From Bacteroidales bacterium (lineage in GTDB: Bacteria > Bacteroidota > Bacteroidia > Bacteroidales > JAAYJT01): 64,000 bases of DNA. Positions 7,564-30,734 of this stretch are shown one piece after another. A program made the position numbers and the translations under genes. The stretch spans positions 64,513 through 128,512 of the forward strand of contig JBASHR010000069.1 of assembly GCA_049654165.1 (NCBI GenBank), given 5' to 3'. The notes below the pieces were generated by a model. The model did not search any database. It worked only from the letters and a program-made list of their open reading frames with translations, and was not told where the DNA came from. Position 1 is the stretch's first letter; the number at the start of each line of letters is the position of its first letter.

Positions 7564-7600
7564 AGCGTATTCTAAATTTTAAATGTAAGCGATATTTGAA

Positions 7601-7660: not shown

Positions 7661-7726
7661 AATATTTCGGGCATGGTCATCAAAATTTATTACTGTTAAT
7701 TGCCACTATCCTTATAACGAAAGCTT

Positions 7727-7734
7727 TACTTTTG
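7727..7734 (+). promoter_or_regulatory. Bacteroidota -7 promoter box (TAnnTTTG)
   Basis: TACTTTTG lies 30 nt upstream of the GTG start at 7764. Confidence 0.4.
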
Positions 7735-7763
7735 CCTGTACAAGTTTTGAACATTGTCATAAG

Positions 7764-9029: not shown

Positions 9030-9098
9030 ACTAAAAAATCCTGATTTTATCAAAATAGCACCTCGTAATCCTGCATCCTGAATATCAACAATATAGGA

Positions 9099-9680
9099 TT
9101 AGTTCCAGGTCAAGGTTGAAAGTAGATACTGAATATCTTCTTTTAGGAAATCAATTACCGGAGCCAGTGAATCGTTATTTGGAATAACATTGAAATATAA
9201 AGCCCCTCTTAAAAAATGCCGGGTACTGTCAGTAACAAAAAACTGACATGGCGAAGCTACCCCTGAACCCTTTACATTATAGATAGTTCCGTAAACCCTT
9301 GCATCAGTATTTATGATCATATCCTCGCGAATACCAGTAGCCTTTGAAATTTGCTTTGTCAGCAGCTTATGTGAATCGTCAAGGTAAGATGCCAGATTAT
9401 TGTCAATTTTTTTATAGCTGAGATGAATATTTGCTTTGAAACGGGGAATATCAATATTCATCCAATACGGTTCTGACAGCGAAGAAGGATTCAGGCGAAC
9501 CTGAGCGTATTCAGGAAATTGAAAAGAATACGGAAAAGCAGAATCAAATTTTATGTAATGTTTTTCAGGAAGTGCTATTCTGAAGAATGTCCGGGGTTTT
9601 GGAACCGGAGCCTCCTGACAGGAAACCAGAATAAAACTAACAAAAAACAAAACATATAGTATCTTTAGCAATTTACTCAT
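9099..9680 (-). CDS. gldD: Gliding motility lipoprotein GldD
   Basis: It has the lipobox 'LVSC'. The stretches 'PKPRTFFRIALPE' and 'QFFVTDSTRHFLRGALYF' match conserved GldD blocks. I trimmed the start to the internal ATG at 9680, in front of the signal peptide. Confidence 0.8.
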   Translation of the reverse strand: MSKLLKILYVLFFVSFILVSCQEAPVPKPRTFFRIALPEKHYIKFDSAFPYSFQFPEYAQVRLNPSSLSEPYWMNIDIPRFKANIHLSYKKIDNNLASYLDDSHKLLTKQISKATGIREDMIINTDARVYGTIYNVKGSGVASPCQFFVTDSTRHFLRGALYFNVIPNNDSLAPVIDFLKEDIQYLLSTLTWN

Positions 9681-9817
9681 TATCAGATAAATATGAAATT
9701 GTTCCAAAACCTTCATTAATTAAAATTCAGCTATTGGTTTAAAAGACATGAATCAATATCAATAAACCCGATTTTCTGTATTTTATTTTAAAATCGCGTT
9801 CTATTGAATTTTTGGCT

Positions 9818-9825
9818 TAATTTTG
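9818..9825 (+). promoter_or_regulatory. Bacteroidota -7 promoter box (TAnnTTTG)
   Basis: TAATTTTG overlaps the ORF-track TTG start at 9823. This argues that priA begins at the ATG at 9892. Confidence 0.4.
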
Positions 9826-9891
9826 AATCCGGTAAAACTCTTACTTGAGCAGGTTAACTGTCAAGGATATAAAATCGCACTTTCTCCAACT

Positions 9892-12393
9892 ATGTCATTA
9901 CTTCCGGGCAAATATGCCAATGTTTTGCTTCCTCTACCAATTCCGGGATTTTTCACTTACGCAATTCCTCCGGAAATGGAATCAACTCTGGTTGCCGGCG
10001 TAAGAGTAGTAGTACAATTTGGGAGAAAAAAGTTATACACTGCTCTGGTTCACAGCATTCATGAAACAAATCCGGGTTTATCCGTTAAAGAAATCCTGGT
10101 TCAGATGGATATTCTGCCCATCGTTAACATCAGGCAGTTTGTGTTCTGGGAATGGTTGTCAGAATATTATATGTGTTCGATGGGAGAAGTGATGAATGCG
10201 GCACTACCACCGGCATTGAAACTCAGCAGTGAAAGCCGCATAAGTCTTGATCCTGATTTTGATCATGATTACAGCAGGTTTAACGAGCGTGAATACAATG
10301 TAATTACAGTACTTGAGCAACAAGAAGAACTAAGCATTTCAGATGTTTCTCAAATTACTGGGCAGCAGCGGGTTATCCCATTGATCAATTCCCTTATTGA
10401 GAAAAAAGCTGTAAGTATTTACGAAGACATCATACAGCGTTATACTTCAAAAACCGAGAAATTCTATAATCTGGCTCAGATTTACCACGATGACGAAAAT
10501 GCACTTGCAGCAATAATGGAATACCTTGAAAGGCGCGCTCCGCGACAGTATGAAATATTGATCAATCTGTTGCATTATCTTGAATTAAGAAGCCACCCTG
10601 AAAATGGTATTCCAAAATCGTTACTGATCTCTGAAACTAAAAGCGCTGATGGGGCTTTGCGCTCATTGGTAGAAAAAGGGCTGCTTGAAGTAACAGAACA
10701 AAATATATCAAGGCTGGGTAAATATGAGGCTGTGCAGTCAGTTTCTGATATAGAACTTACTGAGCACCAGCAGGAAGCATATACAAAGATCAGGGAATAT
10801 TTCACAAACTCAAAACCTGTGCTTCTGCATGGAATAACTTCAAGTGGCAAAACCGAGATTTATATTAAACTTATTGAAGAAACTCTCAAAGCCGGATTTC
10901 AGGTTCTTTATCTGTTGCCGGAAATCGCACTAACAACTCAGATAATTTCACGTTTGCGAAAATTTTTCGGTGATGTTGTTGGTGTTTATCATTCACGATT
11001 TGGTGAATCCGAAAGAGCAGAAGTATGGAACAAGGTAGCTTCATGGCAGGCTTCTGCTGACGGGCAGGTTGTTTCCCATAGTGTCATACTTGGCGCTCGA
11101 TCTGCAATATTCCTGCCTTTCAGCAAACTGGGCCTGATAATTATTGATGAGGAACACGACACTTCTTACAAGCAATATGATCCGAGTCCACGCTATAATG
11201 CACGCGATGCTGCCATTTATCTGGCAAAACAGCATGATGCAAAGGTTTTATTAGGTTCGGCAACACCTGCCATTGAAAGCTATTTCAATGCAAAAACAGG
11301 AAAATACGGGCTGGTATCGCTTGCGAAACGCTATGGAGATATGACGCTGCCTGAGATTTCAGTTGTGAATCTCAAAGAAGCCACACGTCTGAAACAGATG
11401 AAAAGCCATTTTACACCTGCGTTGATCAATGAACTTGAAAAAGCTCTGGATCTCAACGAACAGGTTATTCTTTTTCAGAACCGGCGTGGTTTTGCCCTTC
11501 GTCTGGAATGTAATTTATGCCATTATGTTCCTCAATGCCGCCACTGTGATGTAACCCTTATCTACCATAAAAAAGAAAATCATCTGCGATGTCATTATTG
11601 CGGATATAAAGAGCCAATACCGCCGCATTGTCCGAAATGTCACAGTAAAGAGCTGAACCTCATTGGGTTTGGAACTGAAAAAATTGAAGAGGAACTATCC
11701 CTGATATATCCTGATATCCGTATTGCAAGGATGGATATTGATACTACCCGCAGCAAATTTGCACATCAAAAAATAATCACTGATTTTGAAACCGGCAAGA
11801 CTGATGTTCTCACCGGCACTCAAATGGTAAGCAAAGGACTTGATTTTGACAATGTCAGCCTTGTCGGTATTTTAAGTGCCGATAACATGATCAGTTTCCC
11901 TGATTTCCGCTCTTTTGAGCGCAGTTATCAGCTTATGGCGCAGGTAAGCGGGCGCGCGGGTCGAAAAAACAAACAGGGTAAAGTGATAATTCAAACCCGT
12001 AATCCAAAACATCCGGTTATTAATTTTGTAATTGAGAACAATTATGAAGGTATGTACCGGCATCAGATAGCGGAAAGGCAAATGTTTAATTACCCGCCGT
12101 TTAGTCGCCTTTTGAAGATTTCGTTGAAACATAAAGAGCCTGAACCATTAAACCATGCTGCGGATAAACTTGCCGGAAAACTTAAAAAAGCCTTCCCAAA
12201 GCAGGTACTTGGCCCTGAATATCCTGTGGTTTCGAGGATCAAAAATTATTTTATTAAGGAAATCCTTATAAAATTAAGTCGTGATAAAAATCTGGCGCGA
12301 AACAAAGAACATATCTCGAAGATAATTGATGACTTCATGAAAACCACATCAAATAAGCAAATCAGAGTAATTACTGATGTTGACCCGATGTAG
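9892..12393 (+). CDS. priA: Primosomal protein N' (replication restart helicase PriA)
   Basis: It has Walker A 'GITSSGKTE', a DEAH-like 'DEEHD' and the Cys-rich zinc-binding insert (CNLCHYVPQCRHCD...CHYCG...CPKC). Confidence 0.9.
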   Translation: MSLLPGKYANVLLPLPIPGFFTYAIPPEMESTLVAGVRVVVQFGRKKLYTALVHSIHETNPGLSVKEILVQMDILPIVNIRQFVFWEWLSEYYMCSMGEVMNAALPPALKLSSESRISLDPDFDHDYSRFNEREYNVITVLEQQEELSISDVSQITGQQRVIPLINSLIEKKAVSIYEDIIQRYTSKTEKFYNLAQIYHDDENALAAIMEYLERRAPRQYEILINLLHYLELRSHPENGIPKSLLISETKSADGALRSLVEKGLLEVTEQNISRLGKYEAVQSVSDIELTEHQQEAYTKIREYFTNSKPVLLHGITSSGKTEIYIKLIEETLKAGFQVLYLLPEIALTTQIISRLRKFFGDVVGVYHSRFGESERAEVWNKVASWQASADGQVVSHSVILGARSAIFLPFSKLGLIIIDEEHDTSYKQYDPSPRYNARDAAIYLAKQHDAKVLLGSATPAIESYFNAKTGKYGLVSLAKRYGDMTLPEISVVNLKEATRLKQMKSHFTPALINELEKALDLNEQVILFQNRRGFALRLECNLCHYVPQCRHCDVTLIYHKKENHLRCHYCGYKEPIPPHCPKCHSKELNLIGFGTEKIEEELSLIYPDIRIARMDIDTTRSKFAHQKIITDFETGKTDVLTGTQMVSKGLDFDNVSLVGILSADNMISFPDFRSFERSYQLMAQVSGRAGRKNKQGKVIIQTRNPKHPVINFVIENNYEGMYRHQIAERQMFNYPPFSRLLKISLKHKEPEPLNHAADKLAGKLKKAFPKQVLGPEYPVVSRIKNYFIKEILIKLSRDKNLARNKEHISKIIDDFMKTTSNKQIRVITDVDPM

Positions 12394-12406
12394 AAAGTCT
12401 TCTCTG

Positions 12407-13027
12407 TTAATGGGATTGCAAAGGCAGGAACTGAAATCCTTTATCGCTGTAGTATCCTAAAACCTGTGGCAAGACCTTAAGCATAGTTTTGGCTGATTTT
12501 TTATTATCATGTAACACTATGATTGAACCCTCGCGGGCAGATTTTAAAATATTTTTAATGCATTTCTCTACACTAACTTTCGGGTCAAAATCACCACCCA
12601 ATGCTGACCACATTATTATCTTATATTTCTTTGATAAATATCCTGCCTGACTTCGGGTAATACGACCATAAGGAGGGCGGAACAGCTTTGAATCAACAAG
12701 TTCCGCACATTGATTTACATCTTTTAAATATTCTTCATCAGTAGTTTTCCAGCCATTTAAATGATGAAATGTATGGTTTCCTGCTGAATGACCGGCTTCC
12801 AGTATCTTTTTGTATAATTCCGGGAATTTGCGAACATTATCACCCACACAGAAAAAAGTGGCTTTTGCATCAAAATCCTTTAACAACGATAAAACCTCCT
12901 CTGTTACGCCAGCTACCGGACCATCGTCAAAAGTAAGATAAAGGCTCTTGTCTTTTGTCGGGATCTGCCATACTAAACCCGATGGCATGAATAACCTTAA
13001 TAATCCGGGAGAACCGGTGAAATACAT
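12407..13027 (-). CDS. Polysaccharide deacetylase (CE4) family protein
   Basis: It has the NodB-type motifs 'TFDDGP' and 'HSAGNHTFHH'. Confidence 0.8.
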   Translation of the reverse strand: MYFTGSPGLLRLFMPSGLVWQIPTKDKSLYLTFDDGPVAGVTEEVLSLLKDFDAKATFFCVGDNVRKFPELYKKILEAGHSAGNHTFHHLNGWKTTDEEYLKDVNQCAELVDSKLFRPPYGRITRSQAGYLSKKYKIIMWSALGGDFDPKVSVEKCIKNILKSAREGSIIVLHDNKKSAKTMLKVLPQVLGYYSDKGFQFLPLQSH

Positions 13028-18905: not shown

Positions 18906-19091
18906 GATATATAGAAGTGAATTAATTGCAAAGTAAGACAGAAATAATAATTTGTATTTGAACTATTATCAGTTGCGGAATTTCAGCACAAAATAAAGCA
19001 AAATTTCAAAATCAAGCATTACATACAGTTTTTTAATTGCTGCATCATTATCAAATTGAAGTATAATGTCGCAGCCCTAACTGAAAAACAA

Positions 19092-19099
19092 TATCTTTG
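19092..19099 (+). promoter_or_regulatory. Bacteroidota -7 promoter box (TAnnTTTG)
   Basis: TATCTTTG lies in the divergent region between the receptor operon and the EEP nuclease gene, 34 nt upstream of the ATG at 19133. Confidence 0.4.
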
Positions 19100-19132
19100 C
19101 TCATCCATAGTTTTATGAAAAAGCACATTGAT

Positions 19133-20182
19133 ATGAAAAAAGTAATCTTTTTATTGTTAATCGGTTTATTAATAGTCTTTGTAACATATACCCAAACATC
19201 TAAACCTCAGGAGAAAAGAGCCACAGTTGCCTGTATAGCTTTTTATAATATTGAGAATCTTTTCGATACAATTGACAGCCCCGACACTTTTGATACTGAA
19301 TACACCCCTCAGGGCAGTAAAAAATGGGATAGCGCAAAATATTGGGAAAAAATTTCAAACATTGCCAGAGTCATCAGTGATATAGGAACAGATATGACAC
19401 CTGACGGACCTGCAATAATCGGATTGGCAGAAGTTGAGAACCGTTCTGTTCTGGAAGATCTGGTCAATGATCCACAAATCCGAAACCGTAATTATCAGAT
19501 AGTTCATTACGATTCTCCTGATCGCAGGGGAGTAGATGTGGCGCTGTTGTATCAGCCAAAATATTTTAATCTGTTGTCAAGCAAACCCTATCTATTTATC
19601 CCTGAGGGCAGAACGAATTTCTACTCCCGCGACGTGTTACTGGTTAGTGGTTTGTTTCACGGTGAATTGATGCATGTACTTGTAAATCACTGGCCATCAC
19701 GTGTTGGTGGTGAACGTAAATCACGCCCGCTGCGTAATTCTGCTGCTCAATTAAACCGTAAGATCATTGATTCACTTATGGTTGCAAATCCTGAAGCCCA
19801 CATTCTGCTTATGGGCGACTTAAATGATGATCCGGTAAACGAAAGCGTAAAAGTACATCTGAAAGCCGGATGGAAAAAAGATAAACTCAAGCCCGGTGAA
19901 CTTTATAATCCGCTTTATGAATTCTATCAGAAAGGAATCGGTTCACTTGCATACCGCGACTCATGGAACCTGTTTGATATGATTATTATGAACCAGACAT
20001 TATTATCGAAAAAAGAAAATACTTATCAGTTCCTAAGAGCCGGAGTTTTTAATAAACGATATTTATTACAAACCGAAGGACAATATTCCGGATATCCGCT
20101 ACGCACTCATGTAGGCGACAATTACATGGGTGGCTTCAGCGACCATTTTCCAACATTTATCTATGTTGTAAGAGAAAAGTAA
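19133..20182 (+). CDS. Secreted endonuclease/exonuclease/phosphatase (EEP) family protein
   Basis: The signal peptide is 'MKKVIFLLLIGLLIV'. EEP-like blocks include 'FYNIENLFD', 'GLAEVEN', 'LMGDLND' and 'SDHFP'. The starts at 19097 and 19115 are less likely given the promoter box at 19092. Confidence 0.8.
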   Translation: MKKVIFLLLIGLLIVFVTYTQTSKPQEKRATVACIAFYNIENLFDTIDSPDTFDTEYTPQGSKKWDSAKYWEKISNIARVISDIGTDMTPDGPAIIGLAEVENRSVLEDLVNDPQIRNRNYQIVHYDSPDRRGVDVALLYQPKYFNLLSSKPYLFIPEGRTNFYSRDVLLVSGLFHGELMHVLVNHWPSRVGGERKSRPLRNSAAQLNRKIIDSLMVANPEAHILLMGDLNDDPVNESVKVHLKAGWKKDKLKPGELYNPLYEFYQKGIGSLAYRDSWNLFDMIIMNQTLLSKKENTYQFLRAGVFNKRYLLQTEGQYSGYPLRTHVGDNYMGGFSDHFPTFIYVVREK

Positions 20183-20247
20183 TCCTTTTTAACCTATATA
20201 TTTAAAACTGACATGGGAAACCGGGAAGTATAAACCGGCAGCTTAGC

Positions 20248-20353
20248 AAAAGGACAGTTGACCTTTTACACAGCCCGATTGATCGTTTGGTAGATAAAAA
20301 AACAGAAATAAATAAAATCGGTAAAAAGTTATAACTTTGTACGGGTATTTATT
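20248..20353 (+). repeat. Repeated promoter-bearing module, copy A (51-nt conserved 5' block + TAACTTTG core)
   Basis: aaaggacagttgaccttttacacaGcccGattgatcgtttggTagataaaa, then an A/T spacer, then ataactttgtAcgggtatttatt. The 5' block matches copy B at 48 of 51 positions. Confidence 0.85.
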
Positions 20354-20399
20354 TGTGCAAGTATTTATAAGTTATGGGGTATAGTGAAAACAGAAATCT

Positions 20400-21215
20400 A
20401 TGACATTACATGAAGCAATAAAAAAGGTTTTAAAGGAAAATGGAAGGCCTTTAAAGCCAATTGAAATAGCATCAATCCTGAATGATAGCAAAATCTATCA
20501 AAAAGGTGATAAGAGTAGAATTAAATCATCTCAGATTTCAGCTCGAGTAAATAAGTATCCATCATGTTTCTTCAAAGAAAATGGGTTAATCTATTTGAAT
20601 AATTGGGACTCATCATTAAAAAAAACAAATGAAATTATGCCAAAACATACTATAAAAATAAGAGTTGATTCGAAAGTTACTGATGGAGATATTGAAGAAA
20701 AACTTTTAGCAGCAGGAAACTTTCGACAATATAATGACTTAGATTCCATAACTTTATCTAAAAATGGTTTTTATTGTTTGAGACTTAAGGAAAACTCAAA
20801 ACTACCAGATAGATACCAGCTGATTCTAGATAAACGTAAGTTTAAATATTTATACATTGGAAAAGCTGAAGGACAAAATCTCGGAGAGAGATTAGACCAA
20901 GAAATTGAACATAAAGGTCCAGGAACTTTTTTTAGAAGTATCGGTTGTGTATTAGAATATTTGCCAATTAAAGGTCATTTAAAAGGACATTCAAATCAAA
21001 ATAATTACAAGTTTTCAACTACAGACACAGCGGAAATTGTGGAATGGTTAATTTCTAATATTGAAATTAGCATTGTTGAGTACAACAGTAGCTTTGAAAT
21101 TGAGAAAGAATTTATCAATAAGTATTGTCCCTTATTGAATTATACTCATAACCCAATGAAATTGCAAGAATTGAAAGAAGATAAAGACAATTGTCGAAAA
21201 ATTGCAAGAGGATAA
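20400..21215 (+). CDS. HARE-HTH domain / GIY-YIG-like nuclease fusion protein
   Basis: The N-terminus 'TLHEAIKKVLKENGRPLKPIEIASIL' is HARE-HTH-like. The C-terminus has the GIY-YIG pattern 'GFYCL...YLYIGKA...LGERL...EKEFINKYCPLLN'. Confidence 0.6.
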   Translation: MTLHEAIKKVLKENGRPLKPIEIASILNDSKIYQKGDKSRIKSSQISARVNKYPSCFFKENGLIYLNNWDSSLKKTNEIMPKHTIKIRVDSKVTDGDIEEKLLAAGNFRQYNDLDSITLSKNGFYCLRLKENSKLPDRYQLILDKRKFKYLYIGKAEGQNLGERLDQEIEHKGPGTFFRSIGCVLEYLPIKGHLKGHSNQNNYKFSTTDTAEIVEWLISNIEISIVEYNSSFEIEKEFINKYCPLLNYTHNPMKLQELKEDKDNCRKIARG

Positions 21216-21449
21216 AGAAATACATGTGATAACAAAGTGTAGTAACAATAAGGGTTTCAAAGGTAAATTAAGCCTCCTATATTACTCAAACTTCGATGGT
21301 GGTTAACAATTTTGCAGCCCGTAATCCCTTTCTTTTGCTACACTCAACCGTAACAATCAAGCCTAAAAAAAACAGCGACATAATGAAAATTGACAAGAAA
21401 AAATATAAAGACAGAACAAAAAGCCAAATCAAACGAAATCCGACAACAT

Positions 21450-21480
21450 TTTGTTGATCGGAAAAAATATACTACTTTTG
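21450..21480 (+). promoter_or_regulatory. Candidate Bacteroidota promoter (-33 TTTG, 19-nt spacer, -7 TACTTTTG)
   Basis: TTTG is at 21450-21453 and TACTTTTG at 21473-21480. This would give a leader of about 270 nt in front of the ATG at 21755. Confidence 0.5.
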
Positions 21481-21568
21481 ATTTTGAATTAATTAAAACG
21501 AATTTTATGACATAAGAAACCTTAATTTAAAAATATAGAAGCGTTAGCTTTTATTCTGAGATTAGAAA

Positions 21569-21702
21569 ACTACCACTTTTCAAACGCATCAGGAATAACA
21601 AGTGAAACGCTCACGCCATGGCGTGGGCTTAACTTATTTGATGCGTGGGTGCGTGGTAGTACCTCTGATCTGAATATAGTTACAGACCCACGCTTCTTTT
21701 TT
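21569..21702 (+). promoter_or_regulatory. GC-rich structured leader element with an intrinsic terminator (candidate riboregulator/attenuator or small RNA)
   Basis: Nested helices: ACTACCAC (21569-76) with GTGGTAGT (21653-60), and ACGCATCA (21584-91) with TGATGCGT (21639-46). A central hairpin spans 21609-21628 (CACGCCATGGCGTG core). A competing helix pairs GCGTGGGT (21643-50) with ACCCACGC (21686-93), followed by TTCTTTTTT. Confidence 0.5.
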
Positions 21703-21754
21703 ATACTAACCGTCATAGTTGGGTCTGATGTGGCAATCTAAAAACACAATTTTT

Positions 21755-22474
21755 ATGTTTAGCAAATCATTTTTTAAGACAGCCCTTATTGCGGGGCTAA
21801 CGGTGGCAATGGCACAAGGTGCATTTGCACAAAAAACTGCTGATGAGTTAAAAGCAGAAAGAGAAGTATTAAAGTCAGAAATGAACTCAAAAGAAGCAAA
21901 AAAATTAGAGAAAGTTCTCGAAAAAATTGCACCTATTGGTGGCACAATGGCAGATTTTGTAACAACAGTGTTAAATCCTTCATTAGCATCAGTTCCAGAA
22001 ATTCAAAGGAAAGCTGTTCCTTCGGTTGCAAAACTCGTTGGTAATGAACCTGCCAGAATCGTAAATAAACCTGCTGCAACAAGGCTTAACTCTGTTGATG
22101 GGCTTGTAGATGCAGGCACAACATTGCTTGGTGTTGTAGTTTCAACCAATGCCGTGTTGTCAAAGTACAAAATCGCGATCACTGAAAGTAAAGATGGCGA
22201 AGTTGATATTACACAATACAAAGCAAATTTGGACGATTACATTGCTATTCTTCCAATGCTGGTGCAAGCAGACATTGATGCTACAAAAGCAGTTGAAAAA
22301 ATCAAATATGCTCAAGCCGATCTCAAAGGATTGAATCCTATACAGGCAGCTCCAACTATTAAAGCGTCTAATTGGGCTATTGACGCAGTAAATGTCAGTG
22401 TGTGGAAAATTGCAGAAAACACCAAATTACTGCAGAATCTTATCAACAGTATTAAAGTAGCAGGTAATTTGTAA
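21755..22474 (+). CDS. Exported all-helical protein of unknown function (operon gene 1)
   Basis: The signal peptide 'MFSKSFFKTALIAGLTVAMAQGAFAQ' is followed by a coiled, Lys/Glu-rich N-terminus and the central hydrophobic segment 'GTTLLGVVVSTNAVL'. I trimmed the start from the track's 21719. Confidence 0.6.
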   Translation: MFSKSFFKTALIAGLTVAMAQGAFAQKTADELKAEREVLKSEMNSKEAKKLEKVLEKIAPIGGTMADFVTTVLNPSLASVPEIQRKAVPSVAKLVGNEPARIVNKPAATRLNSVDGLVDAGTTLLGVVVSTNAVLSKYKIAITESKDGEVDITQYKANLDDYIAILPMLVQADIDATKAVEKIKYAQADLKGLNPIQAAPTIKASNWAIDAVNVSVWKIAENTKLLQNLINSIKVAGNL

Positions 22475-22475
22475 T

Positions 22476-23294
22476 ATGTTGATTATGAAAAGATCTACAG
22501 TAATCATATTATTGCTTATGGTTAGTCTTTACGGTTGCCCGCAAGCTGATAGTAAACCAGTAATTGTAGTTAATAGATTTTCTTCAGAAGTGGATAATCC
22601 AAGTTTTACAACTTCTGTTCAGGAAAAAGTTTCTCAAATTGTTGTAAATTCAAAACGTTTTACGGTTAGGATGAGTGATGAAGAAGCAAAAGACGAAGTT
22701 GAAACAAGGAAATCTGAAATTTACCTTGATAATAGTGAGAATCTTGCCGATTTGAAATTGTCGGCATATCAATTCCGTATTATCGGACATTTGATAAAAG
22801 CGAATATCTACAGAATGAAAAACCCTGATGGAAGCGTAAACGGATTTAAAGCAAGTTGTGCTTTTACGCTGAAAGTCAATGATGTGGAAAGAGGGCAAAC
22901 TACTGAAGCTGAAAGTTTTCAAACCGAAGTCAGTCCGTTGGCGGCATCAAAAGAACAGGCAATAAACCAAGCATTGCAATCTATAGAGCCAAAATTGAAG
23001 TCTTATTTTATAAAAACTTTTCCATTAACAACAAAAATTGTAAAGTTTTTGGATAATAAAAAATGTTTGATTTCAGGCGGAAAAAGTTTTGGGTTCAGAG
23101 AGGGCGATAAATTGATGGTTGAACGTATTGAAATGCTTAACGGAAAGCCCTATCCTATCGAAATAGGCGAATTGAAAATTATAAAAATTGCAGGCGATGA
23201 CTTTTCAGAATGCAGTGTTTCAAAAGGTAGTAAAGAAATTTTGGCAGCATTTAACACAGCTGAAAAGTTGAATTGTAAATTAATTGTAAAATAG
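22476..23294 (+). CDS. Lipoprotein of unknown function with a CsgG/LpoB-like N-terminal pattern and an SH3-like C-terminus (operon gene 2)
   Basis: It has the lipobox 'SLYGC'. 'KPVIVVNRFSSEV...VNSKRFTVR' resembles the first strand-helix-strand of CsgG/LpoB-type lipoproteins. An alternative start is at 22488. Confidence 0.6.
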   Translation: MLIMKRSTVIILLLMVSLYGCPQADSKPVIVVNRFSSEVDNPSFTTSVQEKVSQIVVNSKRFTVRMSDEEAKDEVETRKSEIYLDNSENLADLKLSAYQFRIIGHLIKANIYRMKNPDGSVNGFKASCAFTLKVNDVERGQTTEAESFQTEVSPLAASKEQAINQALQSIEPKLKSYFIKTFPLTTKIVKFLDNKKCLISGGKSFGFREGDKLMVERIEMLNGKPYPIEIGELKIIKIAGDDFSECSVSKGSKEILAAFNTAEKLNCKLIVK

Positions 23295-23300
23295 TTAAAT

Positions 23301-23762
23301 ATGAAACAATTAGTAAAATTATTTTTAGTCGGAGTTTCCATTATTTTGTTTGTAAATTCTTGTCGAACAATTTATCCTTCAGCTGAAGTCAATTATTTGT
23401 CGGGCGATGAGCAAACGCTTACCGTTCGTTCCGTAGGGGTTGACATTGATAAAGAAAAAGCAATTATCAATGCTGAACAAAAAGTGTTTGATGTTCTGTT
23501 CTTTAGAGGCTTACCCGAATCAAAACAAAAAATACCGTTAATCAGCAGCAACGAGCATGAAGAAATATCAAATCACAAGAATTATTTTGATAGTTTTTAC
23601 GATGGAAAACGACATAAAACATTTGTAATGTCGTCAATTCCTGTAAGTAACGTAAAAGCTAGGGGTAGACAAAAAATAGTTACGCTCGACGTAAAAGTTA
23701 ATTTGTCGGCACTGCGGCACGATTTGGAAACCTTCGGGGTTATCAGAAAATTTGGTTATTAA
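23301..23762 (+). CDS. Small lipoprotein of unknown function (operon gene 3)
   Basis: It has the lipobox 'FVNSC' and is 153 aa. Confidence 0.6.
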   Translation: MKQLVKLFLVGVSIILFVNSCRTIYPSAEVNYLSGDEQTLTVRSVGVDIDKEKAIINAEQKVFDVLFFRGLPESKQKIPLISSNEHEEISNHKNYFDSFYDGKRHKTFVMSSIPVSNVKARGRQKIVTLDVKVNLSALRHDLETFGVIRKFGY

Positions 23763-23783
23763 CCCAATAAATAGAGGAAATTT

Positions 23784-24674
23784 ATGAGAAAAATACAAAT
23801 AGTAACATTTTTATTGCTTGCGGTAGGTTCTGTTCTCGGACAAAACGTAGCCACAAACAGCGATGGACAAGTTGTAACTGTTCAGCCCAAAATAATGGTC
23901 ATTCCATTTACTAAAGAAAGAGAAGATATCAGGACAATTTTGGAGGAGGATGTTAACCGAAGAATTGCAATTGCTAAAATAAAAGAAGGTTTTGACAGTC
24001 GAGGTTTCACAACCGTTGATTTTGTTGCCAGACTCAAAATTGCAAAAGACAATAATGTTTTCACTTCCGATAATCAGACGGATATTAAAACGCAAATTGT
24101 AGAAATGTCGGGAGCTGATGTGTACGTACAATCCGAAGTAATTATAGAAAAAGGTCAATCGGGTAATTCGGTAAAGCTGATTCTTGCTGCCTATGAAATT
24201 TCTACAGGTAATTCGCTGTCGAACAAAGTAGGCGAAAGCGGACGTTTTTACACAGACGATTTCAATAAGTTGGCATCAAAAGCTGTAGAAAGCTGCATAG
24301 AGGATTTTTTGAACATCATGCAAACGAAATTTACGGACATTGTGAATAACGGAAAATCTATTTTGATTGACATCAGCTTCGATCCTTCTTCGTTGTTTAC
24401 GATGTCGTCGGAAGTTGGAAGTGATGGTTTACCGCTTTCCGACCAAATAGAAATGTGGATGAGCGAAAATGCTCTTAAAGGGAATTATCATATTCAGGGA
24501 ACTACGAATTTAAAAATGTTGTTCGATGATGTGCGTATTCCGCTCAAAGACAGCAATGGAAATAATTATAATCCCAATAAATTCGGACTAGAAATGTATA
24601 AATTCTTCAGAACGTTAGGAATTTCAATAGGCAGAGACATTAAAGGCAATACTATTTATATAACAATAAAATAG
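23784..24674 (+). CDS. Exported protein of unknown function (operon gene 4)
   Basis: It has a signal peptide ('LLLAVGSVLGQ'), and 'PKIMVIPFTKE' directly follows the mature N-terminus. It may belong to a Bacteroidota-only DUF family (unverified). Confidence 0.6.
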   Translation: MRKIQIVTFLLLAVGSVLGQNVATNSDGQVVTVQPKIMVIPFTKEREDIRTILEEDVNRRIAIAKIKEGFDSRGFTTVDFVARLKIAKDNNVFTSDNQTDIKTQIVEMSGADVYVQSEVIIEKGQSGNSVKLILAAYEISTGNSLSNKVGESGRFYTDDFNKLASKAVESCIEDFLNIMQTKFTDIVNNGKSILIDISFDPSSLFTMSSEVGSDGLPLSDQIEMWMSENALKGNYHIQGTTNLKMLFDDVRIPLKDSNGNNYNPNKFGLEMYKFFRTLGISIGRDIKGNTIYITIK

Positions 24675-24681
24675 AGACAAC

Positions 24682-25626
24682 ATGAAAACAATTTATTTTA
24701 TAGTAATCGCAATGATTTTGGCTTCTACTTCAGTTGCCCAATCAATAAGCGATTTGGGAAAAATTACCCTATCGGTTGTAATGCCTGAAAATGTTGATGG
24801 TTTGGATATTTCGCAACTTTCTAAACTGGAGACTAAAATCTCTCAAATTGTTACCGTATCTGGTTTAGCAGCATCAGGTTATAATAATAATTTTGTCATT
24901 TACCCCAAGTTTGCAATTTATGAAAATAATATAGTTGAAGGAGGTATGCAAAAAATTACTGTTTTTACAGCAGAATTAAGTTTGTTCATTAAACAAGTTG
25001 AAAATAATTTATTATTCTCTACAATTAGTAAACAACTCAAAGGAAGTGGAAGCAATAAAGAACAGGCAATTACAAACGCTATCTCTAAAATTCCAATAAA
25101 CGATACCGAATTTAAAATCTTTATTGAAACAGGAAAATCTGAAATTATCCGGTACTATGAAACAAAGTGCGAGGACATTATTAAAAAATCTGACAGTTAC
25201 GTTAAAATGCAGCAGTATGACCAAGCATTGGGATTATTAATGACTGTTCCTGAAGAAGTATCAAGTTGCTACAATCAGATTCAGGGTAAAGCAATTGAGG
25301 CATATAAAGCTTATCAAACACAAAAATGTGCCGAGTTAATTCAAAAAGCAAAGACCACGCTTGCTGGTAATGATTATGCTGGGGCATTAAACATTTTATC
25401 AGATATTGATCCTTCCGCTTCGTGCTTCAATGAAGCACAAGCATTAGCAAAAACAGCCGAAACAAAAGTTGATGCCGAAGAAAAAAAACAATGGGATTTT
25501 CAGATGAAACAGTATAGTGATGCTGTTAGTCTGGAAAAACAGCGTATTAATGCAATAAAAGAAATAGCGGTTTCTTATTACAAAAGTCAACCTACGACAG
25601 TCAATTATAATTATATCATAAGGTAG
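24682..25626 (+). CDS. Exported protein of unknown function with a Cys-containing helical-repeat C-terminus (operon gene 5)
   Basis: The signal peptide is 'IAMILASTSVAQS'. 'ITLSVVMPENV' starts the mature part. The C-terminal half is helical and TPR-like, with five Cys residues. Confidence 0.6.
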   Translation: MKTIYFIVIAMILASTSVAQSISDLGKITLSVVMPENVDGLDISQLSKLETKISQIVTVSGLAASGYNNNFVIYPKFAIYENNIVEGGMQKITVFTAELSLFIKQVENNLLFSTISKQLKGSGSNKEQAITNAISKIPINDTEFKIFIETGKSEIIRYYETKCEDIIKKSDSYVKMQQYDQALGLLMTVPEEVSSCYNQIQGKAIEAYKAYQTQKCAELIQKAKTTLAGNDYAGALNILSDIDPSASCFNEAQALAKTAETKVDAEEKKQWDFQMKQYSDAVSLEKQRINAIKEIAVSYYKSQPTTVNYNYIIR

Positions 25627-25731
25627 TTTCTCCCTTAAACATTTATGCTATTTTTGTCCAAAACACAGAATATTTGCATTGTGAAAACTTTTTGACAACA
25701 TATTATCATACATATTATAAAAATTAAAACG

Positions 25732-25832
25732 AAAGGACAGTTGACCTTTTACACATCCCTATTGATCGTTTGGCAGATAAAATTAAAAAGACAAAACCAA
25801 CAAAAATTGATAACTTTGTTCGGGTATTTATT
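25732..25832 (+). repeat. Repeated promoter-bearing module, copy B
   Basis: aaaggacagttgaccttttacacaTcccTattgatcgtttggCagataaaa, then a spacer, then ataactttgtTcgggtatttatt. Confidence 0.85.
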
Positions 25833-25873
25833 GGTTACTGGTCAGGTTACTGCAAACTCTAAAACACAAGATA

Positions 25874-26089
25874 ATGGCAAAATACACTTTTACCCAATCG
25901 CAGTTTGACGAAATTAGCAACTTGTTAAAAATACGAAAATATCAAAGTCGGGACGAACAAAAATCTACCCAAACTAAAATCAGAAGAAAAGGTTTTAAGA
26001 TTTCAGACCATTTTACCGGGTTTAGCGATATTGACTTTAAAAAACTTTTAGACAGAGGCGAAATTGTAATTATAGACAATCCCATATAA
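25874..26089 (+). CDS. Small basic protein of unknown function (71 aa), first gene of a three-gene cassette
   Basis: The ORF starts 55 nt downstream of the TAACTTTG box. It is Lys/Arg-rich in the centre ('KSTQTKIRRKGFKISD'). Confidence 0.45.
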   Translation: MAKYTFTQSQFDEISNLLKIRKYQSRDEQKSTQTKIRRKGFKISDHFTGFSDIDFKKLLDRGEIVIIDNPI

Positions 26090-26110
26090 TAATATTTTAA
26101 AAACAGATTT

Positions 26111-26605
26111 ATGAACTTCAAAGACATTGAACAAATTAAGAAAGCAGGTTTTACAGGCTTCAAGACAATGAAAGAATTGTTTGCAGACAGTTCAGCTATT
26201 CCAAAAATCAAAGGCGTTTATTTGGTTCTCAACCCGACAAAAAAAGGCGGGTTCTTGACTGTTGGAACAGGCGGTCACTTTAAAGGGAAAAATCCAAATG
26301 TTTCAGTTTCGGAACTTGAAGCAAATTGGGTAGATGACACGATTGTAGTTTACATCGGCAAAGCAGGGAAAGACGGTAGTAGTGCGACACTTCAATCACG
26401 CTTGCGACAGTATTTTGGTTTCGGACAAGGTAAAAATGTAGGACATTGGGGTGGCAGATTTATTTGGCAACTTAAAAATTCAGCAGATCTTGTAGTTTGT
26501 TGGAAAGCATTACCGACAACCGACCCAAGAACAGTTGAAGCCGACCTAATTCAAGACTTCGTTTCAAAATTTTCTCAGCGACCATTCGCAAATTTAGCTA
26601 ACTAA
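26111..26605 (+). CDS. GIY-YIG-like nuclease domain protein
   Basis: It shows the GIY-YIG fold pattern: 'KGVYLV' (GIY), 'VVYIGKA' (YIG), 'LQSRLRQY' (Arg helix) and 'EADLIQDF...PFAN' (Glu/Asn). Confidence 0.6.
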   Translation: MNFKDIEQIKKAGFTGFKTMKELFADSSAIPKIKGVYLVLNPTKKGGFLTVGTGGHFKGKNPNVSVSELEANWVDDTIVVYIGKAGKDGSSATLQSRLRQYFGFGQGKNVGHWGGRFIWQLKNSADLVVCWKALPTTDPRTVEADLIQDFVSKFSQRPFANLAN

Positions 26606-27294
26606 TGAACCCACGACAATTTGAAGAATTAGTTTGTGAGTATTTTCGCAAACAAGGTTACGAGGCCAAAACAACTTCATACAGTGGCGACTATGGTATT
26701 GACGTTTTCGCAACAAAAGGAAAAGAGAAAATAGCAGTTCAAGTAAATATGTATGGCGATTCAACAAGAAAAATAAATCGTCAAATGGTAATGGAATTGT
26801 ACGGAGCAAAAGATTATTTTGATTGCACCAAAGCAATTATCGCAACTGACGGAGCATTTTTGCCCGATGCAATTTCTGTTGCAGAGAAATTGAAAATTGA
26901 AATTTTGTATTTCAACGAATTTCAAACACAACTTCCACAAAATCAATCACTAAAAAGCCGCAAGACAGATAAAACTTTTGAACAAATTTGGGAAGACTAC
27001 ATAATTCCACTTCAAGGAAAAACACTAACGAGAAGTAACGGTAAAACAAATAAAATAATCAAGGTAGATTGGAGTGGAATTGAACGGCTGACATCAAACG
27101 GTAATAAAGGAAAAATCAAAATTGAAATATTCAAACAAGCCGTAAACAAACTTTTAACTAATGGTTCAATTAGCCGTGATTACATCAATCAAAACTACGT
27201 CGGACGAGCATCTTCGGGAATTGTGCTAATTTTATCACAAGTTCCGTTCTTTACACTAACTGACAGACCAACAGGATTGAAATATGAAATGTAA
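26605..27294 (+). CDS. Mrr-like (PD-(D/E)xK) restriction endonuclease domain protein with an uncharacterised C-terminal domain
   Basis: 'FEELVCEYFRKQGY', 'GDYGIDVFA' and 'IAVQVNMY' match the Mrr_cat layout. The start ATG overlaps the upstream stop by 1 nt (TAATG). Confidence 0.65.
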   Translation: MNPRQFEELVCEYFRKQGYEAKTTSYSGDYGIDVFATKGKEKIAVQVNMYGDSTRKINRQMVMELYGAKDYFDCTKAIIATDGAFLPDAISVAEKLKIEILYFNEFQTQLPQNQSLKSRKTDKTFEQIWEDYIIPLQGKTLTRSNGKTNKIIKVDWSGIERLTSNGNKGKIKIEIFKQAVNKLLTNGSISRDYINQNYVGRASSGIVLILSQVPFFTLTDRPTGLKYEM

Positions 27295-27306
27295 CGATAA
27301 AAAGCT

Positions 27307-27329
27307 ATAACTTTGTGCGGGTATTTATT
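27307..27329 (+). repeat. Repeated promoter module, copy C (3' core only)
   Basis: ataactttgtGcgggtatttatt is identical to copies A and B except at one position. Confidence 0.8.
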
Positions 27330-27395
27330 AGTTAATGACAAATTTAAGATTACGACTTGCAATAACTCAAATTTAATAACCAAAAAAATGTAATT

Positions 27396-27650
27396 ATGTC
27401 AGAAATTATTCGCAACAGGACAATCAGACCTTCAAGTAGGCTTGAAAGTTCAAAGAGTTACAAAATTGACACTAAAACCGTTTCGAGTGGCGACACTTTA
27501 ATTGTAAACATTGACCACGAATCAAAACCATTTAAGAAAACGTTCACATTCCGAGGTTCGGACGTTGCACATCTTAACAGTATTCACTTTAAGGTGCATG
27601 ATTTTGGAACTCATATTGAAATTTCTTGGAGTGGAGCAAAGCCAATCTGA
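27396..27650 (+). CDS. Hypothetical protein (84 aa)
   Basis: The ORF starts 81 nt downstream of the third TAACTTTG core. I recognise no motif. Confidence 0.4.
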   Translation: MSEIIRNRTIRPSSRLESSKSYKIDTKTVSSGDTLIVNIDHESKPFKKTFTFRGSDVAHLNSIHFKVHDFGTHIEISWSGAKPI

Positions 27651-27982
27651 ATAGCCGAAACATATTTGGTCAAGCAATTAGAACTTAAAGCACAGGTATT
27701 ATCAAAACCTACTGTTAAATCATTAATATTAGTCCACTCAAAAAAATCATTTGCGCCGTTGGCGAAAGACGATATTGAGATTTTAATCTTAGACACAATG
27801 CCTGGTGTATATTCCGAACTAAACTGCCCCCCCTATTCCGGTGATGCTGACCCCCATCATTCGATATCAGTTTTTTAGGGCTAATCTCAGTCTATAACAA
27901 AGAACAACGAGAGGATAAAATTATACCGATTGGAAAAATATAACAGACCAATTTTATCTCTGCTTGATTGTTCTATATATTT

Positions 27983-28025
27983 AAACCATCGGAATTGGCG
28001 ATTGTAAATACAAATCGTATAATAT
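27983..28025 (+). repeat. Dispersed intergenic repeat, copy 3 (shorter)
   Basis: aaaccatcggaattggcgattgtaaatacaaatcgtataatat. Confidence 0.6.
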
Positions 28026-28138
28026 GAGTGTTGTTTTATTGGCAATAAGCTATAAAATATCCCTTTTTTCAAAAAAGAGCGATTTTAATGAAACAAAATC
28101 ATTCAAAATTTCGTTCATATAATAAAATATATTATCAA

Positions 28139-28597
28139 ATGATAGAAGAAAAAGGAATAACAACAGACCATTATAAGAAATTCACTGAAATTCTCGGAAA
28201 GGAAAATATCCCTGTTGAAATTGAAAGCCCGTTCGATTTCATACATAATGCCAATGAAGGAATAAATGTAGGTGTGATATTGAATTTCAGCAGATATTTC
28301 AACCTGTCAAAAGAGCTTGTTGCTCAATTTCTGGATATTTCTGAACCGACTCTGTATCGTTGGTTTAAAGCGAACAAAAATTTAGAAAGGAATTTCTCGG
28401 TTAAGCTATTTGAAATTGTTGACCTGTTTATTTACGGTGAGGAAGTGTTTGGCGACCGTGATACTTTCTTCAAATGGTTGGGTCTGCCTAATCAAGCTAT
28501 GGGGGGCATGGAGCCAAAAGAGCTGATTGAGATACCCGGTGGTGTTTCAAAGATCAAAGACCTTTTGGGAAGAATTGAGCACGGTGTTTACAGTTAA
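28139..28597 (+). CDS. Xre-like antitoxin with a C-terminal DUF2384-type (MbcA/ParS) domain
   Basis: 'ISEPTLYRWFK' is HTH-like and 'FKWLGLPNQAMGGMEPKELIE...GVSKIKDLLGRIEHGVY' is the typical C-terminus. The ORF track starts at 28088. The gene lies directly upstream of a RES gene. Confidence 0.75.
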   Translation: MIEEKGITTDHYKKFTEILGKENIPVEIESPFDFIHNANEGINVGVILNFSRYFNLSKELVAQFLDISEPTLYRWFKANKNLERNFSVKLFEIVDLFIYGEEVFGDRDTFFKWLGLPNQAMGGMEPKELIEIPGGVSKIKDLLGRIEHGVYS

Positions 28598-28603
28598 TGA
28601 ATT

Positions 28604-29056
28604 ATGCTTGTTTACAGGATCACAGCAAGGAAATATGCAGGCGACCTGAGTGGCTATGGAGCAGCCATGTACGGCGGACGTTGGAATAAAAAAGGAATAC
28701 CGGTTCTTTATACAGGAGAAAATAAAGAAATAGCTCTTCTGGAGGTAATTGTAAACACCCCGCCATTGTTAATTCCGGAATTGGATATCCTTACTATTGA
28801 AATCTCAGATGATTCAATAACCACAATTGATATAGAGCAGTTGCCTAAAAACTGGAGTTCATATCCTGCTCCTGTTATTTTAACTGATATTGGAGAAAAC
28901 TGGATTAAGGAAGGCAAAACCATATCCCTTAAAGTGCCGAGCTGTATTATACATACCTCTCACAATTATATTTTAAATTGCAGGCATCCCGAATATTCAA
29001 GGGCTAAACTAATTGAGCGCAGGCATTTCAGGTTTGACCCGAGATTAAAAAAGTAA
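28604..29056 (+). CDS. RES domain toxin (NAD+-degrading RES family)
   Basis: 'YRITARKY...GGRWNKKGIPVLYTGENKEIALLE' carries the R-E-S signature. It is 150 aa and paired with the Xre/DUF2384 antitoxin. Confidence 0.8.
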   Translation: MLVYRITARKYAGDLSGYGAAMYGGRWNKKGIPVLYTGENKEIALLEVIVNTPPLLIPELDILTIEISDDSITTIDIEQLPKNWSSYPAPVILTDIGENWIKEGKTISLKVPSCIIHTSHNYILNCRHPEYSRAKLIERRHFRFDPRLKK

Positions 29057-29195
29057 AACCCTCATCATAGTATTGAGTCAGGGCGTTAAGGAAATTCGTA
29101 TTGAATAGCATGAGCCCCTGCTCAAATAATTGCCGAAAACCGTTATTCCAGTATATCAGGCAATAAGAAAGCCCGGCTTATTTCCGGCAGAAACC

Positions 29196-30734
29196 TTACA
29201 AAGGTATATTCCCATGTTTTTTACCCGGCAAACTATCAACTTTATTTTGGGTCATTTCCAAAGCCTGAATAAGTTTACGGCGGGTCTGTCGGGGATAAAT
29301 GATCTCGTCAATATAACCAAGTTCAGCGGCTTTATATGGGTTTGCAAATGTTTCGCGATAATTTTCAACAGCTTTTTGTTTTTGCTCTTCATCAAGTTTC
29401 TCGCGATATAAAATATTAACAGCCCCATCAGGTCCCATTACCGCAATTTCGGCACCGGGAAATGCAAAATTCACATCAGCACCAATATGTTTACTCGACA
29501 TTACATCATATGCACCGCCATATGCTTTACGGGTGATCACAGTGATCTTGGGTACGGTAGCTTCAGCGAAAGCATATAATAATTTGGCTCCATGCTTTAT
29601 TATACCGCCAAATTCCTGAGCAGTGCCTGGAAGAAAACCGGGGACATCAACAAATGTTATCAATGGAATATTAAAAGCATCGCAAAACCGTACAAATCTT
29701 GCAGCCTTGATTGAAGAATTGATATCCAGAACCCCTGCCAGTACAGCAGGCTGATTAGCCACTATCCCCACCGGACGTCCGTCAAGACGGGCAAAACCAA
29801 CAACCATATTCTGTGCATAATGCGGCATTACCTCAAAAAAGTTGCCATCATCAATAACAGTATATATCAGTTCTTTCATATCGTAAGGCTTATTGGGGTC
29901 GGCAGGCACCAATGTCTGAAGCTTTTCATCTTCACGGTCAGGATCATCTGCACTTACCTGAACAGGAGGGTCTTCCATATTATTTGATGGCAAAAACCCC
30001 ATCAGCTCACGTATCATCATAAGACATTGCTCATCAGTAGGTGCAACAAAATGAGCGACACCACTTTTTGAGTTATGGGTCATAGCCCCGCCCAGTTCAT
30101 CCTTTGTAACTTCTTCGTGAGTAACTGTTTTAATCACATCAGGACCTGTCACAAACATATAGCTCGTGTCTTTCACCATAAAAATAAAGTCAGTTATTGC
30201 AGGTGAGTAAACAGCTCCGCCGGCACATGGCCCAAGAATAGCAGATATCTGAGGTATTACACCTGAGCTTCTCACATTGCGGTAAAAAATATCAGCATAG
30301 CCTGCCAAACTCTGAACTCCTTCCTGTATACGGGCACCTCCTGAATCGTTAAGCCCGATGACTGGAGCACCCATTTTCATGGCAAGATCCATGACTTTAA
30401 CAATTTTATCGGCATTGGCACGGCTTAAGGTACCGCCAAAAACTGTAAAATCCTGTGCGAAAACATATACCAGACGCCCATCTATTTTACCATAACCGCT
30501 TACTACACCATCGCCGGCAATTTTTTGCCTGTCCATACCAAATTCAGACGTCCGGTGAGTCATATATTTATCAAGCTCCACAAAACTACCCGGATCCAAT
30601 AAAATATCAATACGCTCACGGGCAGTCAGGCGGCCTGACTGATGCAGTTTTTCAATTCTTTCAGCACCACCTCCGAGCAAAGCTTCTTTTTCCTTGTTCT
30701 CAAAACGTTTGTAAATTTCGTCCTGTGTAATCAT
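29196..30734 (-). CDS. Acyl-CoA carboxylase beta subunit (propionyl-CoA carboxylase / methylmalonyl-CoA carboxyltransferase)
   Basis: It shows carboxyltransferase family similarity throughout, e.g. 'GKLTARERI'-like '[14 protein letters not shown]' and 'DVPGFLPG'. Confidence 0.9.

Follow-up and report, generated by a model that had tools for sequence, protein, structure and literature searches.

Judged by the analogy of their domain logic, the closest experimentally characterised relatives of the locus described here are the winged-helix (wH) fusion enzymes, namely the wH-GIY-YIG proteins Ahi29725I and Apa233I and the PD-(D/E)XK-wH proteins DpnI, FcyTI, and Psp4BI, which experiments have established as type IV enzymes dependent on N6-methyladenine (6mA) (PMC11037411). 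GIY-YIG nucleases also form the single-gene defence systems PD-T4-3, PD-lambda-1, and Uzume (bioRxiv 10.1101/2024.10.26.620412), and Bacteroidales carry recombinase-associated arrays, rAID-1, whose cargo consists of immunity genes against interbacterial toxins (bioRxiv 10.1101/471110). Here, we analysed a 64,000-nucleotide (nt) stretch of a Bacteroidales bacterium genome (assembly GCA_049654165.1, contig JBASHR010000069.1, positions 64,513 to 128,512 of the forward strand; hereafter the window). It contains a cassette of three open reading frames (ORFs), which encode a small protein of 71 amino acids (aa), a 164-aa GIY-YIG nuclease core, and a 229-aa Mrr-type protein (Table 1). The conserved unit consists of the two nuclease genes, and the 71-aa gene is optional. 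A literature search found no paper on the GIY-YIG/Mrr gene pair.

An earlier reading of the window from its sequence alone (the sequence-only reading) had described the three ORFs, a 21-nt gap between the first two, and a TAATG overlap between the second and the third, and all of these were borne out. The TAA of the 164-aa gene (26603-26605) and the ATG of the 229-aa gene (26605-26607) have one base in common, while the 71-aa and 164-aa ORFs lie in the same reading frame with TAA TAA and six sense codons between them. Furthermore, the cassette fits none of the systems in PADLOC-DB v2.0.0.

The same reading had credited the 164-aa protein with the full GIY-YIG pattern. This is upheld by the conserved residues and, more modestly, by matches of the AlphaFold2 (AF2) model, but not by Pfam, as the GIY_YIG_2 match (E 0.19, 12.1 bits) lies below the cutoff of 22.4 bits; a precomputed Pfam domain was likewise found for none of 120 listed homologues. 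Across 32 homologues (70-89% identity), residues G35-V-Y37, Y81-I82-G83, R97, H112, E143, and N161 do not vary. Among 83 distant relatives (38-58% identity), conservation is 90% or more for Y37, Y81, G83, R97, H112, E143, and N161 but not for I82, and GIY_YIG_2 is reached at E<=0.01 by seven of these relatives, the best at 5e-4. The spacing of the GIY-YIG residues is normal except for a conserved 41-residue insertion (residues 38-78) between the GIY and YIG motifs. The AF2 model (predicted local distance difference test, pLDDT, 82) gave five notable Foldseek matches in the PDB, all to GIY-YIG enzymes (R.Eco29kI and the N-terminal domain of UvrC; E 0.015-0.04), with a template modelling (TM) score of 0.63 against UvrC when normalised by target length. 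In an hhalign comparison with the bona fide GIY_YIG_2 protein encoded elsewhere in the same genomic island, only the YIGKA..R stretch could be aligned. We accept the 164-aa protein as a member of the GIY-YIG superfamily that belongs to a distinct, unmodelled subfamily, apart from that island protein. Homologues of this core form 2127 clusters at 90% identity, and no form in the family is commoner than the 164-aa one that begins at the present Met. The core itself carries no recognisable DNA-binding domain. Neither the 71-aa nor the 164-aa protein matched NCBIfam, PHROGs, or PADLOC (PADLOC at E<=1), and PDB sequence and profile searches with all three proteins gave no significant match. PD-T4-3, PD-lambda-1, and Uzume resemble the cassette, as we read it, in using a GIY-YIG nuclease as the defence effector. 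However, none of the PADLOC v2 models, those of these three systems included, recognised the 164-aa protein at E<=1, and this protein is typically paired with or fused to other modules.

The Mrr domain recognised earlier in the 229-aa protein was confirmed by Pfam Mrr_cat (PF04471; 79.6 bits against a cutoff of 21, E 2.5e-22), with motif II at D29-Y-G-I-D33 and the motif III position at Q46-V-N48. In the AF2 model (pLDDT 84), residues 108-121 are predicted to be a disordered linker. Structural matches to the N-terminal domain included AF1548, MspJI, Hjc, and AspBHI; a Foldseek search with the whole model was dominated by this domain and did not resolve the C-terminal one. PADLOC hits to the 229-aa protein were confined to the Mrr domains of ZorD, PDC-S01/S02, and LmuA. 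The C-terminal part of approximately 110 aa, which had been called unrecognisable, found no match in Pfam, NCBIfam, PADLOC, PHROGs, or PDB sequences. However, DSSP assigned to it, on the AF2 model, a helix and four strands followed by the order helix-strand-helix-helix-strand-strand at residues 173-227, which is the predicted order of a winged-helix topology. A strictly conserved R-A-S-S-G motif begins the putative recognition helix, and weak, sub-threshold profile matches pointed to the winged-helix families HTH_45, Cullin_Nedd8, and B-block_TFIIIC. According to the model, this domain is a probable winged-helix-like DNA reader. The Mrr/winged-helix family comprises 950 clusters at 90% identity. 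One member, in a Zixibacteria metagenome-assembled genome (L056, 6492-7268), has an extra C-terminal HNH domain.

Both families share features with described enzymes. Like the cassette, the winged-helix fusion enzymes are small and methyltransferase-free, and they combine a catalytic domain of one of the same two folds with a winged-helix or helix-turn-helix (HTH) reader. DpnI has the order predicted for the 229-aa protein, nuclease and then reader, and the wH-GIY-YIG enzymes are matched by cassette relatives whose GIY-YIG core follows an N-terminal HTH or HARE-HTH reader. In contrast to these single-chain enzymes, the cassette is a coupled gene pair, its PD-(D/E)xK domain is of the Mrr type (Q-x-K), and the reader fold of the 229-aa protein is a predicted one; a PDB search at E<=10 returned no sequence similarity between this protein and DpnI. 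E. coli Mrr and the MspJI/AspBHI family have in common with the 229-aa family the Mrr_cat domain, a D-x-G-x-D motif II, and a Q-x-K motif III. The catalytic domains of the modification-dependent MspJI and AspBHI are structural matches to the 229-aa model, and there is no methyltransferase partner in either case. The 229-aa protein differs from them in having a sequence-unrelated putative reader at the C-terminus, in being much shorter, and in being coupled to a GIY-YIG gene, and the window copy differs further in that its catalytic lysine is gone.

Pairing of the two genes was surveyed from both sides, with 80 species-level genome loci fetched through the GIY-YIG protein (81 with L005) and 80 metagenome loci fetched through the Mrr protein, of which 77 were informative. 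The GIY-YIG loci came from Bacteroidota, Ignavibacteria, Zixibacteria, Calditrichia, Planctomycetota, and one Bacillus. The next gene encoded an Mrr/winged-helix protein in approximately 40 of the 81 loci, and its start almost always lay -4 to +5 nt from the GIY-YIG stop. Other GIY-YIG loci had an unrelated downstream gene (DUF6933, DUF2971, AAA ATPases, HsdR, a type IIG restriction-modification (RM) enzyme, and others); the 168-aa downstream genes of L002/L010 and the 172-aa one of L005 were tested as hidden relatives of the 229-aa protein and proved unrelated. From the Mrr side, a GIY-YIG gene was directly upstream in 57 of the 77 loci and was not detected in 18, mostly belonging to one human-gut lineage. 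Across 38 paired loci, the pairwise distances of the two proteins were strongly correlated (r = 0.83), a value matched in none of 2000 permutations. Paired and unpaired GIY-YIG genes are intermixed in a neighbour-joining tree; therefore, the partner has been repeatedly lost or gained. Pairing is frequent, not obligatory.

These results sustain the earlier claim of a dedicated, translationally coupled two-nuclease module rather than chance neighbours, given the overlap kept across phyla, the co-divergence, and the movement of the genes as a block (see below). They do not extend to the third gene. The 71-aa gene adjoins the pair only in four near-identical strains (L087, L088, L172, and L173), so that a co-occurrence check of the three genes recovers the GIY-YIG/Mrr pair as recurrent and leaves no conserved three-gene unit.

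The human-gut Mrr/winged-helix lineage (L148-L166, e.g., L151 2697-7316; 59% identical) lies after a WYL/WCX regulator and adjoins GmrSD. In L154 and L166, a GIY-YIG relative is located approximately 4.4 kb downstream of the Mrr gene.

Table 1. Coordinates of the cassette, its domains, and other features of the island within the window
Feature	Position	Strand	Basis or remark
Repeat copy 1	20249-20356	+	first two copies approximately 105 nt
HARE-HTH + GIY_YIG_2 protein, 271 aa, paralogous cassette	20400-21215	+	GIY_YIG_2 6e-29, HARE-HTH 1.2e-5
Hairpin-rich intergenic region	21530-21715	+	-62.3 kcal/mol, z = -6.3; T-run end
Five-gene operon, predicted lipoproteins/secreted proteins	21719-25626	+	one DUF6175, 4.9e-80
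Repeat copy 2, left cassette boundary	25732-25835	+	contains TAACTTTG at 25811-25818
71-aa small ORF, adaptor-type domain, fold not recognised	25874-26089	+	ORF
164-aa divergent GIY-YIG nuclease core	26111-26605	+	conserved residues, AF2 model and Foldseek
229-aa protein ORF	26605-27294	+	
Mrr-type PD-(D/E)xK catalytic domain, residues 1-106 of 229-aa protein	26605-26922	+	Pfam, Foldseek
Asn48 codon AAT at catalytic lysine position	26746-26748	+	A to T at 26748, K48N
C-terminal domain, approximately residues 122-229	26965-27291	+	DSSP on AF2 model, pLDDT 84-95
Repeat copy 3, right cassette boundary	27282-27332	+	core 27307-27329
84-aa ORF behind repeat copy 3	27396-27650	+	68% identical to P0256 residues 1-81
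Xre/ParS antitoxin + RES/ParT toxin, complete pair, island right end	28088-29056	+	NCBIfam 2.3e-27, 7.9e-48

Relatives of the GIY-YIG core suggest what the small neighbouring genes may contribute. In a full HMMER search, 1545 relatives of the core were retrieved from 1.84 billion representatives, many of these relatives being 260-280 aa long with a small N-terminal domain and the core at the C-terminus. The N-terminal domain is of the 71-aa type in P0241, P0242, P0246, and P0257, and HARE-HTH in P0252 and P0270, while others carry HTH_17, MerR, sigma-70 region 4, or transposase-type HTH domains. A 'GLPLRNLLR'-type N-domain is fused to the core in P0254 and occurs as a separate upstream ORF in L027. 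A second nuclease is present in the core polypeptide of P0284 (Uma2 PD-(D/E)xK) and P0343 (HNH), and the RNase-type domain NYN is fused to the core in P0367 and P0381. The core would appear to need a partner, since in its relatives it is joined to DNA-binding domains or to a second nuclease. These sequences suggest a bare catalytic core that receives DNA-binding readers, and in many cases a second nuclease, either in cis or in trans.

The 71-aa protein itself had no Pfam, PHROG, or PDB match. Outside the four near-identical strains, a separate 71-aa relative lies upstream of a GIY-YIG gene with a different downstream neighbour in L061, and a weaker match (39% identical) lies upstream in L081. 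Close homologues also adjoin a GHKL ATPase gene or a gene for a 253-aa protein of unrecognised family; the latter (L170) was tested as a GIY-YIG protein and is not one. A relationship of the 71-aa family to the C-terminal domain of the 229-aa protein or to the HARE-HTH region was also considered, and hhalign showed none. In L011, L014, L026, L030, and L033, the place of the 71-aa ORF is taken by a conserved family of 92-95-aa ORFs (MSISxADIQKALRIK...LPIRDFLRHLD...). This family, directly upstream of the GIY-YIG gene, had no Pfam match and is a candidate for another adaptor. Immediately behind the cassette of the window, the 84-aa ORF resembles the N-domain of P0256, whose C-terminus is a GIY-YIG core of the 164-aa type. 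No degraded GIY-YIG gene was found after this ORF (27650-28088) by tblastn with the fusion proteins, and the ORF is either an orphan adaptor or the remnant of a third cassette.

We give an even chance to the reading that the locus encodes a type IV-like restriction system of two nucleases without a methyltransferase, in the form of a compact, horizontally mobile cassette, which would act against phages or plasmids. Its core unit would be a GIY-YIG nuclease without a DNA-binding domain and a coupled Mrr-type PD-QxK nuclease with a C-terminal winged-helix-like reader. The Mrr/winged-helix subunit would recognise the DNA target, with a contribution from a small adaptor such as the 71-aa protein where one is present. 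By analogy with type IV enzymes, the target would most likely be a modified base or another non-self feature; modification-dependent cleavage is suggested solely by likeness to the winged-helix fusion enzymes (PMC11037411). The two unrelated active sites would be brought together in one complex, and each would cut one strand to yield a double-strand break.

Several observations weigh against this reading. Each partner is also found alone, approximately half of the GIY-YIG genes have an unrelated downstream gene, and the human-gut Mrr lineage behind the WYL regulator has no adjacent GIY-YIG gene; the interleaving in the gene tree likewise indicates that the partnership is dispensable. The GIY-YIG fold matches of the 164-aa model are not strongly significant, and the winged-helix call derives from predicted topology and sub-threshold matches. 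The neighbours in other genomes are very heterogeneous, with 126 Pfam families among 137 proteins, and the defence-island context is qualitative.

A bolder extension, which we put forward tentatively, is that the pair represents an undescribed methyltransferase-free defence family: a heteromeric endonuclease of two unrelated folds, one per strand, with exchangeable readers (the winged-helix-like C-domain, the 71-aa adaptor, HARE-HTH, or other HTH domains) and repeat-delimited, integron-like arrays, spread through Bacteroidota and beyond. The type IIT heterodimeric enzymes BbvCI, BtsI, and BsrDI have two different catalytic subunits that cut one strand each, together with cognate methyltransferases. 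The logic proposed for the cassette would resemble theirs in its two non-identical active sites and would differ in that the cassette lacks a methyltransferase and its complex is only presumed. We know of no GIY-YIG + PD-(D/E)xK complex among type IIT enzymes.

It is somewhat unlikely, in our view, that the two genes encode autonomous restriction-like nucleases that merely share one operon, with neither a complex nor a common target. Such autonomy would account for the many genomes in which each gene stands alone and for the intermixed tree, and the logic of an Mrr domain joined to a winged-helix domain is that of single-chain DpnI-like enzymes (PMC11037411). However, it would leave unexplained why the stop/start overlap is kept across phyla and why the two proteins co-diverge so strongly, and it sits poorly with a stand-alone GIY-YIG core that lacks a recognisable DNA-binding domain and whose relatives are fused to DNA-binding or second-nuclease domains.

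The sequence-only reading had also drawn attention to the triplet Q-V-N where Mrr-type enzymes have Q/E-x-K, and had taken it for an unusual active site. The triplet is present (Q46-V47-N48, coded by CAA GTA AAT at 26740-26748), but it is not a trait of the family or of its design. Among 32 aligned sequences, 31 have Q-x-K, one of them 97% identical to the window protein, and the exception is the window copy; all 76 metagenome homologues with a readable motif have Q-x-K as well. The homologue P0122 differs from the 229-aa protein of the window solely at K48, and in the near-identical strain L088 the codon is AAA, as opposed to AAT in the window. In L172 and L173, which are independent contigs 99.7% identical, position 26748 is one of just five mismatches in 1.9 kb. 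Q-V-N is a private one-base mutation of the window genome, and all other homologues examined have Q-x-K. In the Mrr-family nuclease of LlaGI, the equivalent K94A mutant is wholly inactive and shows no cleavage (PMC2790908). Because of K48N and the inactivity of this equivalent mutant, the Mrr subunit of the window is probably catalytically dead, by analogy, and the family is not. A division of labour in which Mrr is a pure sensor and GIY-YIG the effector, as had been proposed, does not describe the family, because its Q-x-K site is intact throughout; it may fit the mutant copy of the window by accident. In the window genome, the most that the K48N subunit could do is to bind DNA or to target it for the intact GIY-YIG subunit, and probably only the GIY-YIG site is active, or else the cassette is heading to inactivation.

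That the cassette is already a decaying, non-functional remnant in the window genome is, on balance, unlikely. Besides K48N, decay could explain why the 71-aa and 164-aa ORFs are in frame and interrupted by TAA TAA, and why the neighbouring 84-aa ORF lacks a nuclease part. On the other hand, no conserved residue is missing from the GIY-YIG protein, whose gene is intact, and the split 71 + 164 layout is kept with identical stops in L087, L088, L172, and L173. Moreover, a 164-aa protein starting at the present Met is the most frequent form in the family, and the Mrr protein is a single substitution from the K48 allele.

The cassette is bounded by repeats. The motif ATAACTTTGTNCGGGTATTTATT occurs three times in the window, with none expected by chance, and each copy lies 45-70 nt 5' of the first ATG of a cassette; in other genomes' loci it was not present, being confined to the near-identical strains. 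The Bacteroidota -7 promoter consensus is TAnnTTTG, and TAACTTTG in repeat copy 2 fits it, so that we take it to be a putative promoter. The upstream repeat behind the earlier idea of a promoter common with another GIY-YIG gene is accordingly real, while its promoter activity is presumed. Synteny with L087, L172, and L173 breaks exactly at 25732, and L087 and L088 part from the window at 27303. In L087, L172, and L173, the block 25732-27303 joins the left flank directly, and in L087 it is followed by the HARE-HTH cassette; in L088, the slot after 27303 holds a 198-aa ORF and a distant GIY-YIG paralogue instead of the 84-aa ORF. Because the rearrangements between strains break at this repeat-bounded block, the three genes move as one cassette.

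Strains of 92-99.7% identity differ in the order and content of their cassettes, and the breakpoints coincide exactly with the repeats. This pattern suggests that small nuclease cassettes are shuffled in an integron-like manner or by homologous recombination. The segment 20354-25731, with the lipoprotein operon, is missing between the left flank and the three-gene cassette in L087, L172, and L173; it may lie elsewhere in these genomes, as the contigs are short.

Mobility is also apparent in other genomes. Direct repeats flank 12 of 107 loci, against one of 78 controls, and flank the window cassette as well. A XerD-like recombinase is encoded within 6 kb in approximately 11 of 81 loci, and no homologue of it was found in the 64-kb window. 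In Chryseobacterium kimseyorum (L009, NZ_JAPDHW010000013.1, 3798-12495), a XerD-like tyrosine recombinase heads an array of same-direction genes, between which lie conserved repeats of approximately 150-170 nt (seven copies), and the GIY-YIG/Mrr pair is one of its cassettes. This array resembles rAID-1 in its XerD-like recombinase and in the intergenic repeats between same-direction cassettes, and the window resembles rAID-1 in its repeat-bounded cassettes reshuffled between strains. In contrast to rAID-1, with its immunity genes, the cargo here consists of nucleases, the window has no recombinase homologue, and the repeat sequences differ between genomes.

These traits could also be expected of a selfish homing-type element, in which the cassette would be spread by the GIY-YIG protein, acting as a free-standing homing endonuclease, with the Mrr gene carried along as passenger cargo. 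The patchy distribution with 70-80% identity across phyla, the flanking direct repeats, the cassette order that varies between near-identical strains, and the nearby recombinases would all suit such an element. We nevertheless consider it improbable, as no relative was found in the 2.9 million viral contigs of IMG/VR and no PHROG matched, no intron or intein context was seen, and the 164-aa form lacks the DNA-binding modules of known GIY-YIG homing enzymes. Recombination at repeats or recombinase-associated arrays would explain the movement better, and tight co-evolution with a second nuclease is unexpected for passenger cargo. A housekeeping, structure-specific repair or recombination pair (UvrC/Slx1-like and Hjc-like) is very improbable. 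It would fit the presence of Hjc resolvases and of the GIY-YIG domain of UvrC among the structural matches, and it is opposed by a sporadic distribution, hypervariable flanks, frequent gain and loss, and a low-GC island with RM, abortive-infection (Abi), and toxin-antitoxin (TA) neighbours. A TA reading was rejected, since both proteins keep nuclease catalytic residues and neither is antitoxin-like.

The island has a low GC content of 31-37%, against about 40%, and lies between an Exo_endo_phos_3 gene and a carboxyltransferase gene. In agreement with the sequence-only reading, no methyltransferase domain was found among the scanned island genes (19097-30734). The 25 families listed for the 137 immediate neighbours in other genomes contain a single DNA methyltransferase (EcoRI-type) and a single RNA methyltransferase, and no methyltransferase recurs consistently. 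The family met most often beside the genes elsewhere is that of the tyrosine recombinases, and GmrSD, MmeI-type RM, AbiEii, T5orf172, HsdR, and TA modules also occur.

We place the cassette among the restriction nucleases that are modular and lack a methyltransferase. It is widespread, lends itself to testing, and carries no surprising principle so far. If the proposed restriction role is confirmed, a widespread and very compact module (about 1.2-1.5 kb) would be added to the defence repertoire of Bacteroidota, a phylum with poorly sampled defence systems, and the pair would offer a natural case of cooperation between two unrelated nuclease folds at a single target. Its plug-in reader domains could then be a source of new modification-specific or strand-specific (nicking) enzymes. 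The repeat-bounded shuffling between near-identical strains suggests an exchange of such modules like that of integron cassettes. For the window genome, the 'unusual active site' amounts to a single, probably inactivating mutation and offers no new catalytic design.

Besides the nuclease genes, the island carries the lipoprotein operon, located between the two nuclease cassettes, and the Xre/RES TA pair (Table 1). An Rfam search over 19000-30000 gave no match, the hairpin-rich region between the HARE-HTH-GIY-YIG gene and the lipoprotein operon included. None of 200 shuffles of this region folded as stably as the native sequence, and the region may encode a small RNA or form an elaborate terminator.

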